Below, one piece after another: positions 3,562-25,627 of a stretch of 32,000 nt of DNA (the stretch's first letter is position 1; each line of letters starts with the position of its first letter). The notes beneath the pieces are model-generated. The model made no database searches. It was not told the DNA's origin and saw only the letters and a program-made list of their open reading frames with translations. Location: positions 3,690,001-3,722,000 of the forward strand of contig JAIZWK010000001.1 in assembly GCA_021498095.1 (NCBI GenBank), read 5' to 3'. The stretch is from Candidatus Harpocratesius repetitus. Lineage in GTDB: Archaea > Asgardarchaeota > Lokiarchaeia > Sigyniarchaeales > Promethearchaeaceae. Made by a program: the position numbers and the translations under genes.

Positions 3562-4551
3562 TTAAATTTGAATACTTTTAAGTCTTTTAGTTAGTATTTT
3601 AAATACTAACAAGACGAAAGCATCCTCTACATTGATATTATTTAGAGCACTGGTTTCTAAATACCCCATGTTATATTTAGACGCCAGATTATTTGCTTCT
3701 TCTGTTGAAACAACTTTAGAAAGATCAGATTTATTCCCAACCAAAAGAGATTCGTATTCACCTTCAATATAGGAATCTAATTCAGATTTCCACTGATGAA
3801 TATGGTCGAATGTTTTTCGATCGTGCAAATCAAATACGAGAATTACTGCCATAGTTCCCTTATAATAACTTCTTCTTACACGTTTGAAGAATTTTTGCGA
3901 TCCAATGTCATAAATGTTTAAGTGGACTCGGTTTTCCATAAGTGTATACGTATGGGTCATAATATTCAACCCAATTGTCGGTCGAAAATCTTTTGGAAAA
4001 ACACCATCAACAAAGCGGTTTACCAAGCTTGTTTTTCCAACACCTGAATCCCCTACTAAAGTAAACTTAAAAACCCATTGTTGAATCTCATTAGAACTCG
4101 AGTCCAACAGTTTTGAACCTAATATTTCTCCCAATTTTGGAATTTCTAGATCAACAGATTGGTTTTCTGATAAAATTCTATAAAATTTTTCTGTAGCTAA
4201 GTAAAGAAAAGGTTGAAGTTTATCAATCCATGCATCAATCGATACTATATAGATGAAAGTCCACTCATCAACAAAAATACTAATACTACGAAAGTTCTCA
4301 GCATCTATAATAGCATTAGCATAAGGTGAATCCGATTGAATTTCTTGAATTCGACGCAAAATCGGATCTAGATCAAAATTAATTGATGAATATTGATTTC
4401 TTGCATGATTAACCTTTGAACCAAATGCTTTTTGAATCTCAGACGAATATATCAGTTCCTTTCCATGTTTTAAAATATAAAGCCTTTGTAATTCAGGTAT
4501 ATTACATGCTAAGTTAGAAGAAAGAGTATTCAGTAGCAAATTTTGATTCAT
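3562..4551 (-). CDS. Rab/Ras-like small GTPase with N-terminal roadblock/longin-like domain
   Basis: G1 GDSGVGKTS, G2 FRPTIG, G3 variant DIGSQ, G4 NKSD, G5 ETSAL. The ~150-aa N-terminal extension has a helix-beta-beta-helix-beta-beta-beta-helix pattern. The GTPase call is secure; the N-domain fold is inferred. Confidence 0.9.
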   Translation of the reverse strand: MNQNLLLNTLSSNLACNIPELQRLYILKHGKELIYSSEIQKAFGSKVNHARNQYSSINFDLDPILRRIQEIQSDSPYANAIIDAENFRSISIFVDEWTFIYIVSIDAWIDKLQPFLYLATEKFYRILSENQSVDLEIPKLGEILGSKLLDSSSNEIQQWVFKFTLVGDSGVGKTSLVNRFVDGVFPKDFRPTIGLNIMTHTYTLMENRVHLNIYDIGSQKFFKRVRRSYYKGTMAVILVFDLHDRKTFDHIHQWKSELDSYIEGEYESLLVGNKSDLSKVVSTEEANNLASKYNMGYLETSALNNINVEDAFVLLVFKILTKRLKSIQI

Positions 4552-11682: not shown

Positions 11683-12399
11683 CTATTTAATTTCTTCTTT
11701 TACATGGTTGGGAATGATAAGATATAAACTATAGATATAAAAAACATAAGAACCAAGCAAAAGCCATTCCCATAATGGAAGATACATCATAAAAAAGTAA
11801 ATTCTCCAGAAATAATATAACCAATAAAAAGTAAAGGCAGTTAAAAAGCCAATCATAATCACATCAGAAACAAGATATAAACATACAAGTTGCCAAATTT
11901 TAATCCACCCCATTTTATCTTTAATACTTTTGATAAGTGTATACATATTAAAGGAAAATGCTGTGAAAAAACCAAAAAAAGCTAATCCTGCAAAAATATA
12001 ATGGATTAAACCAGAATCTTCTGAAAAAATACCAACACCAAACACACCCAATGCGGAAAAGAGAAGGATTATAGTAAATATGTATGTAGTAATTTTAGCG
12101 ATTGGACGTAATTGGCGAAAAAGAAAGAATATATAAGGAATTAACCCTAATCCTGCAATCGACATGCTTAAACTCCAAATTGAATGACCAATCGGATTTT
12201 TTATTCTATTTCCAAGACTACTTACACTCATACGAAGAAATTGATAATGAATAGGGTATTTTAATATAGAAAATGTGTAAGAACTAAGGAGAATAACTAA
12301 AAGACAAATAAGAAGCACACCATAAGCATGCTTATGAGATTTTCCCTTTAAAAAATCAAGGATTCGTCTAAAAATAGACTTAAAATTCATATTTTTCAT
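11683..12399 (-). CDS. DUF998-like membrane protein (paralog of 10871..11677)
   Basis: SVSSLG...NPIG, GVGIFSED..IHYIFA and PLWEWLL. Confidence 0.7.
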   Translation of the reverse strand: MKNMNFKSIFRRILDFLKGKSHKHAYGVLLICLLVILLSSYTFSILKYPIHYQFLRMSVSSLGNRIKNPIGHSIWSLSMSIAGLGLIPYIFFLFRQLRPIAKITTYIFTIILLFSALGVFGVGIFSEDSGLIHYIFAGLAFFGFFTAFSFNMYTLIKSIKDKMGWIKIWQLVCLYLVSDVIMIGFLTAFTFYWLYYFWRIYFFMMYLPLWEWLLLGSYVFYIYSLYLIIPNHVKEEIK

Positions 12400-12401
12400 G
12401 A

Positions 12402-14711
12402 TTAATCATTGAATGTGGCAAGCTTACGATATAATGGAATAAAATCGCTAAATGAATTAATATCATAATATCTAAGTTTGTTAGAAATAAAATCAGAAAC
12501 TAATTCTTTAAGTGAAATATTTCCCATTCCAAAGATATTAACTTGAATCTTATCAAATTGATAGAAATTACTAAGGATTTTTTCTAGTTCAGGAAAATCA
12601 TCAGGGGTTGCATCAGTTATAATTATTAGTTTAATTGGACGAGTTGGTTCTTTTTCTCTTAGTTTTCTTATTATTTCTTCTGATTTTGGTAATATAGATT
12701 GAATATGATGAAATGTACCTGATTCTAATTCTACTTGTTCTAATAAATTGTGAATGAATGATACTAAAACAGATGTACTGTAAATATTTGAATTTAACCA
12801 ATCATCTTGATTAATTGTACTAATTATTTCTTCATGATCTTTGAAAACTACGATAGAAATATGTTCTTCAATTTTTCGTGAGATTTTTTCAATAATATAC
12901 AAAAATATGAAAAATAGAGCAGTATTAAGCCGTGAAATATGCGATCTTGCAGAAATCATCGGAAATGGAGATTCTATTGAAAGTTGTGAAAGAAAATTCT
13001 CTACTTTCCGCACTTCTTTATACTCCTTATTCACTTCAACATCACGAGCTAACATACTTCGTGTTAAATCAAAGAGAATAAGAGTATCAACTGGAACTAA
13101 GCCCTCTATTGATATTTCAATTTCTGAATTCGCAGAAATCTTTCCTATTTCTTGAGGACCTAAAGCTGGTGAACACGATTTAAATTTAAAAATCGAATCA
13201 AAATCTGGGTGCTTTACTTGCATCCGTGGAAATATAAAATAATTCAGAAAAAAGATTCTAATACTTTCTTTTCGATTTTGAATATTTGTTGTAATTTTAT
13301 TATAACTTTCTGACGAATTAGGATTGATTTTTGCTAATAAATATAATTTTTTAATATTAACAACATTTTTTGGTCGTTTTTGAATTGAGAGTAGATCTTT
13401 ATTGTTAAAATCAAACCATAGAATGTTAGGATCTATTTCAATTCTTTCATTAGATATTGTAAAATCTGTTTGAACCTTTGCATATGTCGTAAGATTAGTA
13501 TTGGATTTACTAATTCCCACAATATCGCCCAGTTTTACACCCAAGGCGTTAGCATTCCGAAAGTTTATCTTTACTTTTCCTATTAACTCATGATTAAAAA
13601 TTGGTTTAAAAGTAAGTTCTCTTACTTTAATAATCGGTGGTTCCATTGAAAAAACAACCAGTTTCGGAACTAGAACTTCAGCAATCTGATTCTCTTGGAA
13701 CATTTCTTTATCCATTATAATTGTCTCAACTTCAATTTTACTTATTTCTATAGTTGCCATTCCTTGCCTTCTTGATATTGGATCTTCCCAACCAAGAAAA
13801 GCACCCGGAAATAGAGAAAGACGATTTGCTAATTCTTGTGAGATTAAAATATTTCCATTTAAATCTCGATCAACAATTTTACATCGAACTATTTGAGAAT
13901 TAGGAATAATTAAATGCAGCTGTTCTACAGAAATTTTATTTGGATAATTTTCAAGATTTATTGAATCTTTTTCTTTATATTTAACTAATTCATTCGATTC
14001 TATTGTAAATTCTACATTTTGGTTCTTAATAGTAGATGTCGCAATAAAATCGTCAGCTAATGAGTCTGTCTTAATTTCAGATATATTACGATTCTCTTTG
14101 ATATTCTCAGAATGTATCTCTTTATTTATTCCCTTATAATATTCTTTATTTAACACTTTATCTGGAAAAGGTTGTTCTATTTTAGAATCATCAATTTGTT
14201 TGAGTTTATTCTCTTCTGTTGTATTTTTCCCTACATTACCATATTGGTTTAATTCATTATCCATATTTTTGGAAAAAAGAGATAGATTATCAAGTGCTTT
14301 CTCGACATCTGGATGTAAAACAAGATTTTGAGATTCTTGAGCCATTTTTTGCGATAATACTTCTTCAAAAAGTTGAGTTTGACTTTTTAAATCTAATTCA
14401 TCAATTTTATATTCTGAATATTCTTCCCCTGGATTGATAAATTTCGCAGCATTTTCTGCTTTAATGGTTTTATTTTGTGAAAATGGTAATGATTGAAAAA
14501 GTTTAGGTAATACAATAGTTCCTTCTGGAATCGTAGGAGATATTCTCATAGGAACATGAAAATAATTATGCCATCGTCGATTAGTAGAAAATAATCGAAT
14601 AGTTCCACCTTCGGGTAATCCTATCTTATGCGCATCTATCTCATTCATTTCACAATAAGGAAATTTATTCAATTCAAATTGAAATTTCAGACTGATCCGC
14701 ATACCCATCAC
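12402..14711 (-). CDS. Multi-domain protein: three Cdc48-N-like double-psi barrels, a Cdc48 Nc-like subdomain and a C-terminal VWA domain; no ATPase. Probable start ATG 14702 or 14708
   Basis: Barrel motifs EIDAHKIGLPEGGTIRL, ISQELANRLSLFPG and INFRNANALGVKLGDIVGI; Nc-like SCSPALG...ISANSEIEI; VWA LILFDLTRSM, IVVF, IIITD. AGGTGA SD at 14708-14713. Confidence 0.7.
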   Translation of the reverse strand: MMGMRISLKFQFELNKFPYCEMNEIDAHKIGLPEGGTIRLFSTNRRWHNYFHVPMRISPTIPEGTIVLPKLFQSLPFSQNKTIKAENAAKFINPGEEYSEYKIDELDLKSQTQLFEEVLSQKMAQESQNLVLHPDVEKALDNLSLFSKNMDNELNQYGNVGKNTTEENKLKQIDDSKIEQPFPDKVLNKEYYKGINKEIHSENIKENRNISEIKTDSLADDFIATSTIKNQNVEFTIESNELVKYKEKDSINLENYPNKISVEQLHLIIPNSQIVRCKIVDRDLNGNILISQELANRLSLFPGAFLGWEDPISRRQGMATIEISKIEVETIIMDKEMFQENQIAEVLVPKLVVFSMEPPIIKVRELTFKPIFNHELIGKVKINFRNANALGVKLGDIVGISKSNTNLTTYAKVQTDFTISNERIEIDPNILWFDFNNKDLLSIQKRPKNVVNIKKLYLLAKINPNSSESYNKITTNIQNRKESIRIFFLNYFIFPRMQVKHPDFDSIFKFKSCSPALGPQEIGKISANSEIEISIEGLVPVDTLILFDLTRSMLARDVEVNKEYKEVRKVENFLSQLSIESPFPMISARSHISRLNTALFFIFLYIIEKISRKIEEHISIVVFKDHEEIISTINQDDWLNSNIYSTSVLVSFIHNLLEQVELESGTFHHIQSILPKSEEIIRKLREKEPTRPIKLIIITDATPDDFPELEKILSNFYQFDKIQVNIFGMGNISLKELVSDFISNKLRYYDINSFSDFIPLYRKLATFND

Positions 14712-14793: not shown

Positions 14794-15183
14794 TTATTCA
14801 GATTTAGGGTACGTTTCGCTTATTTTCTGGGCATAAAACCGAAAAACAGCAACAGTTTTACCTAAATCCCGAATAGAACGGGATGCACCAATTAGAAAAA
14901 ACCTCCCTGCTGCAGAAATAACCATAAAACTTTTTTTTCCTCGTAAAACAACTTCAATAAGCTTGTTATATCCAATTTTAACTACAGAATCATTACCGCT
15001 TTGAAGAAGAACCGCGCCCATTGCACATAAGGCATCAGGATCAATTTCATAACCAGAAACTGCAGAAAAAGCTAATCTAAGCCCTTCTTTGGTTACTAAA
15101 GCTAAAGCTTCAAGTTCAGTATTCTTAGTAATATTCGAGAGATAAGCACTTAGTTTTTGGGCATCATCTTCATTTAATGACAT
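14794..15183 (-). CDS. Roadblock/LC7 (MglB/LAMTOR-like) protein
   Basis: 129 aa; LEALALVTKEGLRLA, ALCAMGAVLL, LIEVVLRGKKSFMVISAAG and LG..VA pattern. Confidence 0.9.
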   Translation of the reverse strand: MSLNEDDAQKLSAYLSNITKNTELEALALVTKEGLRLAFSAVSGYEIDPDALCAMGAVLLQSGNDSVVKIGYNKLIEVVLRGKKSFMVISAAGRFFLIGASRSIRDLGKTVAVFRFYAQKISETYPKSE

Positions 15184-15225: not shown

Positions 15226-15981
15226 TTATTTCTTTTTTAAGAATTCAATTGCAATTACAGTTTGATCTTTTACTAAAACTCGAGGTGCATATCCATCAGC
15301 AAAAAATAATCCCTCAGGTAAAGTAGAAATAGGCTCAAGAACGCGCTCTATATTTTCTTTACCTAGAAAAGATTGCTTTTTTTCAGTTACTGAATAAGCA
15401 TGATCCCCTATTATTACCATTTCTCTTTCAAATCCTGCTGGAATTTCTTCTTCATCTAACAAATGAATAATCTCTTCCAATTTTGCTTTACTCGGAGTTT
15501 TTGTATATGTTGTAGATGAACTTGAAGTAAAGAGATGATCATTATCTCCAGTGTAAAGTGGTCCAGATTGTTCAATTTGATTATATTTAGAGTGATAAGA
15601 AGAAGGCGGGGTTTTTGGAGGAGGACTTCCACTAGGTTCACGAAATTGAATTTCATTACCTTCTTCTCGAATTTCATGAGCAAAACCTTTTGTTGGGGGT
15701 TCTTCAATTGCTTCAAGAAATTCTGGCTCTTTGTTAGTATCAACTTCTTCTAGAGAAACAGAACGATAACTTAATCCAACTTGTGATCTAATATCTTGAC
15801 TAATCCGCGCACCATTAAATTTTGATCTAACGGATGCATTTGTTCCTATCCAGAGGTAAACGACTCGTTTTTTATCATCGACTAAAACGTAACATTCTTT
15901 GCTATCTAAGAGCTTCTTTATAGGCTGTTCCTCAGTGATCTCATGTGCTTCACCATTTCCCCTTACTATGAACAGTTGCAT
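15226..15981 (-). CDS. Asgard single-domain gelsolin with C-terminal extra domain (1DGelX-like)
   Basis: LDSKECYVLVDD...VYLWIGTNAS..SKF gelsolin repeat (aa about 1-92), then a Pro/Ser linker and a C-terminal globular domain. AGGAG SD upstream. Confidence 0.85.
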   Translation of the reverse strand: MQLFIVRGNGEAHEITEEQPIKKLLDSKECYVLVDDKKRVVYLWIGTNASVRSKFNGARISQDIRSQVGLSYRSVSLEEVDTNKEPEFLEAIEEPPTKGFAHEIREEGNEIQFREPSGSPPPKTPPSSYHSKYNQIEQSGPLYTGDNDHLFTSSSSTTYTKTPSKAKLEEIIHLLDEEEIPAGFEREMVIIGDHAYSVTEKKQSFLGKENIERVLEPISTLPEGLFFADGYAPRVLVKDQTVIAIEFLKKK

Positions 15982-25117: not shown

Positions 25118-25627
25118 GTGGTAGAGGCGGATCTGCAAATGGAAAAAATTAAAGAGAGAGAAATCGGAATAGCAGTATCTCATTATCATCAAAAATTAGG
25201 CCCACAATTCGCCGCTATCGCATTCGATTTCACGATTTTTGACAAACTTGCACAGTATGACATCCTTCAAGACAGTATTTCTTCTAGAACAAAAGATTTA
25301 GCTCTTTTTATCTCCACAAAAAATGGAACAAAATATACAATTAGAATTAAAAAAATAAAAATATTTGATCCTAATGCGAGAGGGAGAGTACAACGTTATG
25401 CGTTGATAATTATATATCCAAGAGAATTGAATGAAGAAAACTTCAAAATTGATGAAATTGTTGAAGACATTACAGAAAAACTAACAAATGGGTTAAGTAT
25501 TAGGCAATCATTAAATGCTTGGCATACATTACTTAATGATCAATATGGAAAAATTGAAAAAAATGATGATCTCAAGATAATTAAAAGATATCGAAGGATA
25601 ACCCATCCTCAATTAGATTTTCTTTAA
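25118..25627 (+). CDS. Stand-alone longin/uDENN-like protein; possible start ATG 25139
   Basis: N-terminal IAVSHYHQKLGP and internal DPNARGRVQRYALIII, the pattern seen in FLCN/SMCR8/NPRL-type longin domains. Confidence 0.6.
   Translation: MVEADLQMEKIKEREIGIAVSHYHQKLGPQFAAIAFDFTIFDKLAQYDILQDSISSRTKDLALFISTKNGTKYTIRIKKIKIFDPNARGRVQRYALIIIYPRELNEENFKIDEIVEDITEKLTNGLSIRQSLNAWHTLLNDQYGKIEKNDDLKIIKRYRRITHPQLDFL

Follow-up and report, generated by a model that had tools for sequence, protein, structure and literature searches.

The protein encoded on the minus strand at positions 12402 to 14711 of a 32,000-nucleotide (nt) stretch of the Candidatus Harpocratesius repetitus genome (contig JAIZWK010000001.1, positions 3,690,001 to 3,722,000; hereafter the window) raises the question of what a Cdc48-type N domain does in a chain that lacks an ATPase. 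A sequence-only reading had described three Cdc48 N-like units followed by a VWA domain and proposed a precursor of DEPDC5/Iml1 (Sea1), the scaffold of GATOR1, or alternatively a novel Cdc48/proteasome adaptor. The genus is placed in the Promethearchaeales (Lokiarchaeia) of the Asgard archaea, and the genome, which consists of a single 4.36-Mb contig, is 93.6% complete. We conclude with moderate confidence that the protein is a cytoplasmic, noncatalytic scaffold or adaptor with three Cdc48-type barrels and a full N domain fused directly to the VWA domain. This N+VWA core is the hallmark of a previously uncharacterized, mainly Asgard protein family.

Domain architecture of the protein

The open reading frame (ORF) encodes 769 amino acids (aa) when read from a GTG, and its stop codon occupies 12402-12404. 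It is a real gene, as had been claimed, with one open minus-strand frame and known orthologues; only the start had to be moved, to the ATG at 14702. This ATG lies three codons inside the GTG frame and is likely the true start, giving 766 aa; the identical database copy and all orthologues begin there (MRI). Residue numbers refer to the 766-aa form, i.e., the earlier numbers minus 3, and all coordinates within the gene are on the minus strand. Among named relatives, a hypothetical protein of Candidatus Harpocratesius comes nearest (78% identity), and databases label such proteins only as "VWA domain-containing protein." NCBIfam and PADLOC returned no match for the protein or three neighbors, and a search of the PDB sequences with the single target sequence gave nothing useful.

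Two AlphaFold2 (AF2) models were analyzed, one of the core (aa 345-766, built from a 58-row alignment; predicted local distance difference test [pLDDT] score of 88.6, predicted template modeling [pTM] score of 0.69) and one of the full-length chain (pLDDT, 82.2), in both of which the interdomain geometry is uncertain (pTM, 0.62-0.69). In the full-length model, a strand-strand-helix-strand-strand-strand-helix-strand pattern occurs three times, at aa 3-84, 259-352, and 357-445. The first of these units (unit 1; 14451..14696; pLDDT, 81-94) matches the Pfam family Molydop_binding at 32.8 bits (cutoff, 26.8), a family with the double-psi β-barrel fold, and it proved homologous to unit 3 by hhalign (94.7%; E value, 5.8e-8). 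Unit 2 (13647..13928; pLDDT, 92-96), which carries a conserved WEDPxTR motif, was likewise linked to unit 3 by hhalign (98.2%; E value, 6e-14). The direct hhalign comparison of units 1 and 2 was not significant, nor did the unit 2 profile match PDB sequences or Pfam significantly; unit 2 is called a second double-psi barrel because of its hhalign link to unit 3 and the AF2 model. Unit 3 (13368..13634) constitutes the Nn double-psi barrel of a complete Cdc48-type N domain and is followed by a β-clam Nc subdomain (aa 446-533; 13104..13367). The alignment with the p97 N domain covered residues 17-189 of the core model and 161 of the 166 chain residues at a root mean square deviation (rmsd) of 2.6 Å, so that both characteristic features of the Cdc48/p97 N domain, the Nn barrel and the following Nc clam, are present.

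Units 1 and 2 are separated by two helices and an acidic disordered linker (aa 85-258; 13929..14450). The region from about aa 90 to 260 is 32% charged, with a net charge of -14, and is poorly conserved among orthologues; aa 147-231 were modeled as disordered (pLDDT below 50). A motif scan of the protein found no Walker A, GK[ST], or hhhhDE motif and no transmembrane or hydrophobic segment, and no AAA family was detected in the Pfam scan. The sequence-only reading was thus accurate in its account of three barrel-like units, a charged low-complexity linker, an Nc-like subdomain, and the absence of Walker A/B motifs, and in the overall order of a Cdc48-type N domain leading directly into a VWA domain without an ATPase.

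The VWA domain (aa 537-766; 12405..13094) has the three-layer α/β fold (PF00092) and ends the protein. In the family as a whole (n = 58), the metal ion-dependent adhesion site (MIDAS) is canonical: the Asp is present in all 58 members, the two Ser residues in 53 and 56, the Thr of TNM in 52, and the Asp of TDG in 56. A conserved Met and a downstream Asp are shared with BatA/B-type VWA domains. The variant MIDAS previously noted in the target (D-L-T-R-S ... TD, with the Asp codon at 13068-13070) was found as described, with Thr in place of the first Ser, and it differs additionally in that His665 replaces the Thr; the site thus comprises D545, T547, S549, H665, and the retained D697. As far as the sequences indicate, the MIDAS appears to be weakened and drifting in the target branch, because the residue corresponding to the Thr is H, T, S, or M among the orthologues, yet it is not erased.

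The protein is therefore soluble, lacks catalytic motifs, and is made of modules that dock proteins in p97, PEX1, p44, Rpn10, Ku, and DEPDC5. By analogy with adaptor binding to the p97 N domain, the Nn-Nc cleft and the extra barrels could bind peptides or β-grasp ligands. The VWA face, with its weakened metal site, might dock a further partner, as the VWA domains of p44, Rpn10, and Ku and the SABA-NPRL2 contact would suggest, and the acidic linker would serve as a flexible tether for the first barrel.

A mainly Asgard family and its gene contexts

When 1.84 billion representative proteins were searched exhaustively with a profile, 80 clusters were returned, 49 of them below 1e-10. The N+VWA core spans about 420 aa, and many family members of about 410-450 aa match the N domain and the VWA domain only. 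The sampled names covered Promethearchaeota (Loki), Hel-, Sigyn-, Thor-, Heimdall-, and Odinarchaeota and Asgardarchaeia; two more (P0040 and P0088) came from Thermoplasmatota and Methanomassiliicoccales metagenome-assembled genomes (MAGs), so that the family does not occur exclusively in Asgard archaea. Matches at an E value of ≤1e-10 were present in 51 of 121 sampled Asgard genomes, with up to six per genome and one in the genome studied here, and the strongest of these matches mostly spanned the whole profile model. A word-indexed homologue search with the family profile mostly recovered orthologues that were already known. Of the ESM Atlas clusters spanning both domains, the nearest is 96% archaeal, and the bacterial clusters listed were either VWA only or AAA ATPases. 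Within the scope of these searches, the fusion is not widespread in bacteria; a wide bacterial occurrence would have spoken against the sequence-only reading. The ESM Atlas feature search also returned one bacterial (Actinomycetota) 603-aa VWA cluster at 0.92, which may or may not include an N domain.

Extensions of the core differ in their distribution. Unit 2 with its WEDPxTR motif also occurs in six relatives (P0012-P0017) from Loki-, Hel-, and Sigynarchaeota. Unit 1 and the linker were demonstrated only in the orthologue group of the target; hhalign of unit 1 against the N termini of the relatives P0097 and P0015 gave weak alignments only, at the right position. In the maximum likelihood (ML) family tree, the stem leading to the target clade has a length of 2.19 substitutions per site, and the clade is set apart from the unit 2-extended clade. 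We regard this separation as unreliable because of the long stem, the skewed composition, and the homology of unit 2 in both clades. Proteins of about 870-960 aa, with about 450 extra residues, also match the N+VWA profile (E values, 1e-19 to 1e-40; L008:8840-11461, L009:2543-5224, L039:4510-7209, and L046:3999-6875) and sit a few kilobases from paralogues of about 440 aa. The N-terminal half of the L009 protein has a subthreshold Amidohydro_2 match (E value, 5e-4), while that of L008 has no Pfam match.

The neighborhoods of the family were surveyed at 27 loci from 19 genomes. The commonest neighbor, found at 13 loci in 9 genomes, is a protein of 1,060-1,400 aa with a GCS2-type carboxylate-amine ligase signature, often accompanied by an Amidohydro_2-like protein of about 480-540 aa that is adjacent or even fused. 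N+VWA paralogues of about 430 aa are found with this set at L004:3507-9718, L006:4980-11232, L029:2609-9289, L034-L037, and L041-L045, and together they may form an uncharacterized modification system. The target could accordingly be imagined as the VWA subunit of such an amide-ligase and amidohydrolase system, as most of its paralogues would be, which we consider very improbable. The GCS2-like partner was not found in its own single-contig genome with the query used, neither gene lies at the target locus, and the target clade combines a very long branch with an altered MIDAS. As a side observation, a gene for a BrxL-like protein (BREX Lon-type ATPase; L029:417-1859) heads a co-oriented operon of at least eight genes that includes two tandem N+VWA paralogues.

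Other contexts point elsewhere. A Sigynarchaeota member of 565 aa with weak CDC48_N and VWA matches adjoins a cluster of ubiquitin, ThiF E1, UQ_con E2, and JAB genes together with a coiled-coil protein (L028:360-6698). Such a context would fit a ubiquitin-like, Cdc48, or proteasome adaptor, the alternative raised in the sequence-only reading, in which the N domains bind β-grasp ligands and the VWA domain docks a degradation machine as Rpn10 does. We regard this as quite unlikely for the target: the ubiquitin context was seen at one locus only, no ubiquitin-system or proteasome gene occurs at the target locus, and, since the protein ends with the VWA domain, no ubiquitin-interacting or other ubiquitin-binding motif follows it. 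In another lineage, the neighbors are an Rce1-like protease, a HEAT-repeat protein, and further VWA proteins. Because these contexts vary and the GCS2-like partner was not found in the genome of the target, the N+VWA module appears to be used in several settings, the commonest of which the target branch has left. The Promethearchaeales branch added two barrels and the acidic linker, weakened the MIDAS, is without the GCS2/amidohydrolase context, and evolves fast.

No description of the N+VWA fusion without an ATPase, of the triple-barrel form, or of the Asgard-wide family was found in the literature searched, in agreement with the earlier statement that no archaeal example of the architecture was known. 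Both domains are well known; as far as that literature goes, these three aspects of their combination are new.

Neighboring genes and the scaffold model

The target is the fourth of five minus-strand genes in a row, which encode a YjeF-type NAD(P)HX repair enzyme, a gelsolin-domain protein, a roadblock protein, the target, and a membrane protein, separated by gaps of 63, 42, 82, and 2 nt. The roadblock/LC7-like gene (14794..15183, minus strand; 129 aa) lies upstream of the target in the same orientation. Its assignment is borderline (Pfam Robl_LC7, 22.9 bits against a cutoff of 23; PDB 7f8m, E value of 0.012). The co-oriented gelsolin-domain gene (15226..15981, minus strand; 251 aa) matches the Lokiarchaeota 2DGel structure 7whg_G (E value, 7.6e-6) and is syntenic in the metagenomic relatives L001 and L002. 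Its product consists of a gelsolin domain, a Pro/Ser-rich linker, and a C-terminal domain of about 70 aa of unknown type. Two bases separate the target stop codon from the start codon of the downstream gene for the multipass membrane protein (11683..12399, minus strand; 238 aa). This protein is weakly Frag1/DRAM/Sfk1-like (Pfam Frag1, 20.5 bits, below the cutoff); its gene is syntenic in L001 and L002, yet it does not always adjoin the target orthologue. The gene order is retained in both relatives.

In at least 13 Promethearchaeales genomes, the roadblock gene stands next to the target orthologue, and an orthologous roadblock gene (E value, 2e-65) adjoins P0097, an 828-aa unit 2-extended relative. 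When the 27 loci from 19 genomes were searched with a profile of the roadblock orthologues, the gene was found only at P0097. The roadblock neighbor on which the sequence-only reading had relied is thus a real gene, but as a neighbor it is confined to one order. A complex prediction with the full-length target and the roadblock protein scored 0.00, below the mark, and counts as evidence neither way. Elsewhere in the window, several kilobases from this cluster, are a Ras/Rab-like GTPase with an N-terminal extension of about 160 aa (3562-4551, minus strand) and a 169-aa protein with a weak Folliculin (longin) match (25118-25627, plus strand; E value, 0.0047).

With these neighbors, the scaffold would most plausibly assemble a complex with the co-encoded roadblock protein, as a GTPase-regulatory platform, and with the gelsolin protein. 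By analogy, such a partnership would parallel the docking of NPRL2 by SABA in GATOR1/SEACIT.

Several observations weigh against the scaffold reading. The relatives' neighbors differ (GCS2/Amidohydro_2, ubiquitin/E1/E2/JAB, or Rce1-like/HEAT), so that the module has no single conserved partner class. At P0097 the roadblock gene is divergently oriented, and gene order across the whole region of about 14 kb is conserved in L001 and L002; since the entire region is syntenic, the roadblock adjacency may reflect general synteny and is weak evidence of function. Fast evolution and the weakening of the MIDAS might alternatively reflect relaxed constraint. Of all the genes in the neighborhood, the target is the most divergent (49% and 37% identity to L001 and L002, respectively) and the roadblock gene the slowest evolving (91% and 90%), with the other neighbors at 55-83%. 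We nevertheless consider it highly improbable that the gene is decaying or survives as a remnant without function as selection relaxes, despite being the fastest-evolving gene in its surroundings with MIDAS positions that vary among orthologues. The ORF is intact, an alignment of seven orthologues contains about 140 invariant columns, the folds were predicted confidently, and the frame is open in the genomes checked, except for a single terminal-looking stop in two matches.

Relation to DEPDC5/Sea1 and other known systems

The premise of the sequence-only reading regarding DEPDC5 is sound: an N-like N-terminal domain (NTD) that resembles the Sec18/NSF N domain is followed by the VWA-like SABA domain, which resembles the Sec23 trunk domain (PMC8534245). 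SABA binds NPRL2 in GATOR1/SEACIT (PMC9646525). When the core model was compared with the PDB by Foldseek, chains of DEPDC5 and yeast Sea1 took the top five ranks (E values, 4.5e-11 to 3.3e-10), and they took the top four with the full-length model (2.2e-10 to 6.2e-10), in alignments of 430-486 columns. The expected top rank was therefore obtained with two independent models, but p97 N-D1 chains, in which the AAA α/β domain stands in for the VWA domain, follow within 1-2 orders of magnitude in E value. The predicted identity of interdomain packing found no support in these alignments: the query-based TM score (TMq) was 0.17-0.30 and the rmsd about 14 Å, so that the two domains do not superpose together, and the AF2 geometry is itself uncertain.

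Although both models reproduce it and it deserves attention, the DEPDC5 rank carries less weight than it seems to at first. Among the structures matched, no type other than DEPDC5/Sea1 pairs an N-like with a VWA-like domain, the other two-domain Foldseek matches being AAA ATPases; thus, any N+VWA fusion, related or not, would rank DEPDC5 first. By rigid-body Z score and by sequence, the domains lie nearer to the Cdc48/PEX1 N domain and to generic MIDAS VWA domains (p44, Rpn10, BatB, and ArnB). Neither rigid-body Z list has DEPDC5 among its top 50 entries, which does not exclude similarity because single-domain VWA matches fill the lists. The Pfam family IML1 (PF12257) gave no match at an E value of ≤10 in the own genome, and in 201 Asgard genomes no match exceeded the cutoff, with weak matches lying off the located N+VWA loci. 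The SHEN, DEP, and CTD domains are absent, as the target ends at the VWA domain and the Pfam scan found no DEP family.

A true DEPDC5/Iml1 precursor or homologue would be a GATOR1-like GTPase-activating protein (GAP) scaffold whose VWA domain docks roadblock or longin proteins and which regulates Rag- or Arf-like GTPases. The shared domain order and folds, the best PDB matches to human and yeast proteins, an Asgard-wide family that includes Heimdall, and the conserved roadblock neighbor all speak for it. Furthermore, Asgard archaea have NPRL2-like longins and Rag GTPases, and no counterpart of DEPDC5, the third GATOR1 subunit, was found reported among them; the literature searched yielded no account of a DEPDC5-like protein in these archaea. 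The low TMq, the closeness of p97 N-D1 in E value, the absence of DEPDC5 from rigid-body lists in which the Cdc48 N domain, p44, and Rpn10 do appear, and the lack of an IML1 signal argue against it, as does the fact that most family members adjoin GCS2/amidohydrolase genes and not GTPase regulators. We consider this explanation of the target unlikely. Of the proposed DEPDC5-like precursor, then, the domain order and folds stood, whereas IML1, SHEN, DEP, and CTD found no counterpart and the roadblock neighbor is limited to one order. The target is best described as analogous in architecture to the NTD-SABA half of DEPDC5/Sea1; common ancestry of the two is conceivable at rather low probability.

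A broader version, also improbable in our judgment, holds that the DEPDC5/Iml1 NTD-SABA pair has its prokaryotic source in the Asgard N+VWA family and that the Promethearchaeales branch already scaffolds a roadblock/longin-based GTPase-regulatory complex. If true, it would supply the GATOR1 subunit for which no Asgard counterpart was found reported. The opening domain pair of DEPDC5 (a Cdc48/NSF-type N domain and a VWA-like domain) is widespread in Asgard archaea and stands beside a roadblock gene in one order, so that the origin of the GATOR1 scaffold can be tested directly. Apart from DEPDC5, the findings define an uncharacterized, mainly Asgard family that uses the Cdc48 N domain in an unusual way, without an ATPase, and for which several gene contexts recur.

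Among known systems, DEPDC5/Iml1 (Sea1) comes closest, having in common with the target an N-like domain that leads directly into a VWA-like domain and being its best Foldseek match in the PDB. DEPDC5 is about 1,600 aa long; the target, at 766 aa, has two extra barrels and a MIDAS-type motif and is without SHEN, DEP, and CTD. In contrast to Cdc48/p97/VAT and PEX1, it has neither AAA+ D1/D2 rings nor Walker motifs, and its N domain leads into a VWA domain. Pex1, with its tandem N1-N2 domains, likewise repeats N-type barrels in one chain and ranked fifth for the full-length model (879 aligned columns), but at an rmsd of 25.7 Å, and it continues into two AAA+ domains. The VWA proteins with a MIDAS (TFIIH p44/Ssl1, Rpn10, BatB, ArnB, and the Sec24 trunk) all lack an N-terminal Cdc48-type N domain. 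Rpn10 carries ubiquitin-interacting motifs after its VWA domain, which the target does not. Sec23/24 combine a Zn finger, trunk, β-barrel, helical, and gelsolin domains in one chain, an arrangement that the target does not share. The sequence motif resembles that of the BatA/B VWA domains, but none of the ORFs of the window matched a MoxR-type AAA family, as would be expected beside a MoxR-associated/BatA-type VWA gene.

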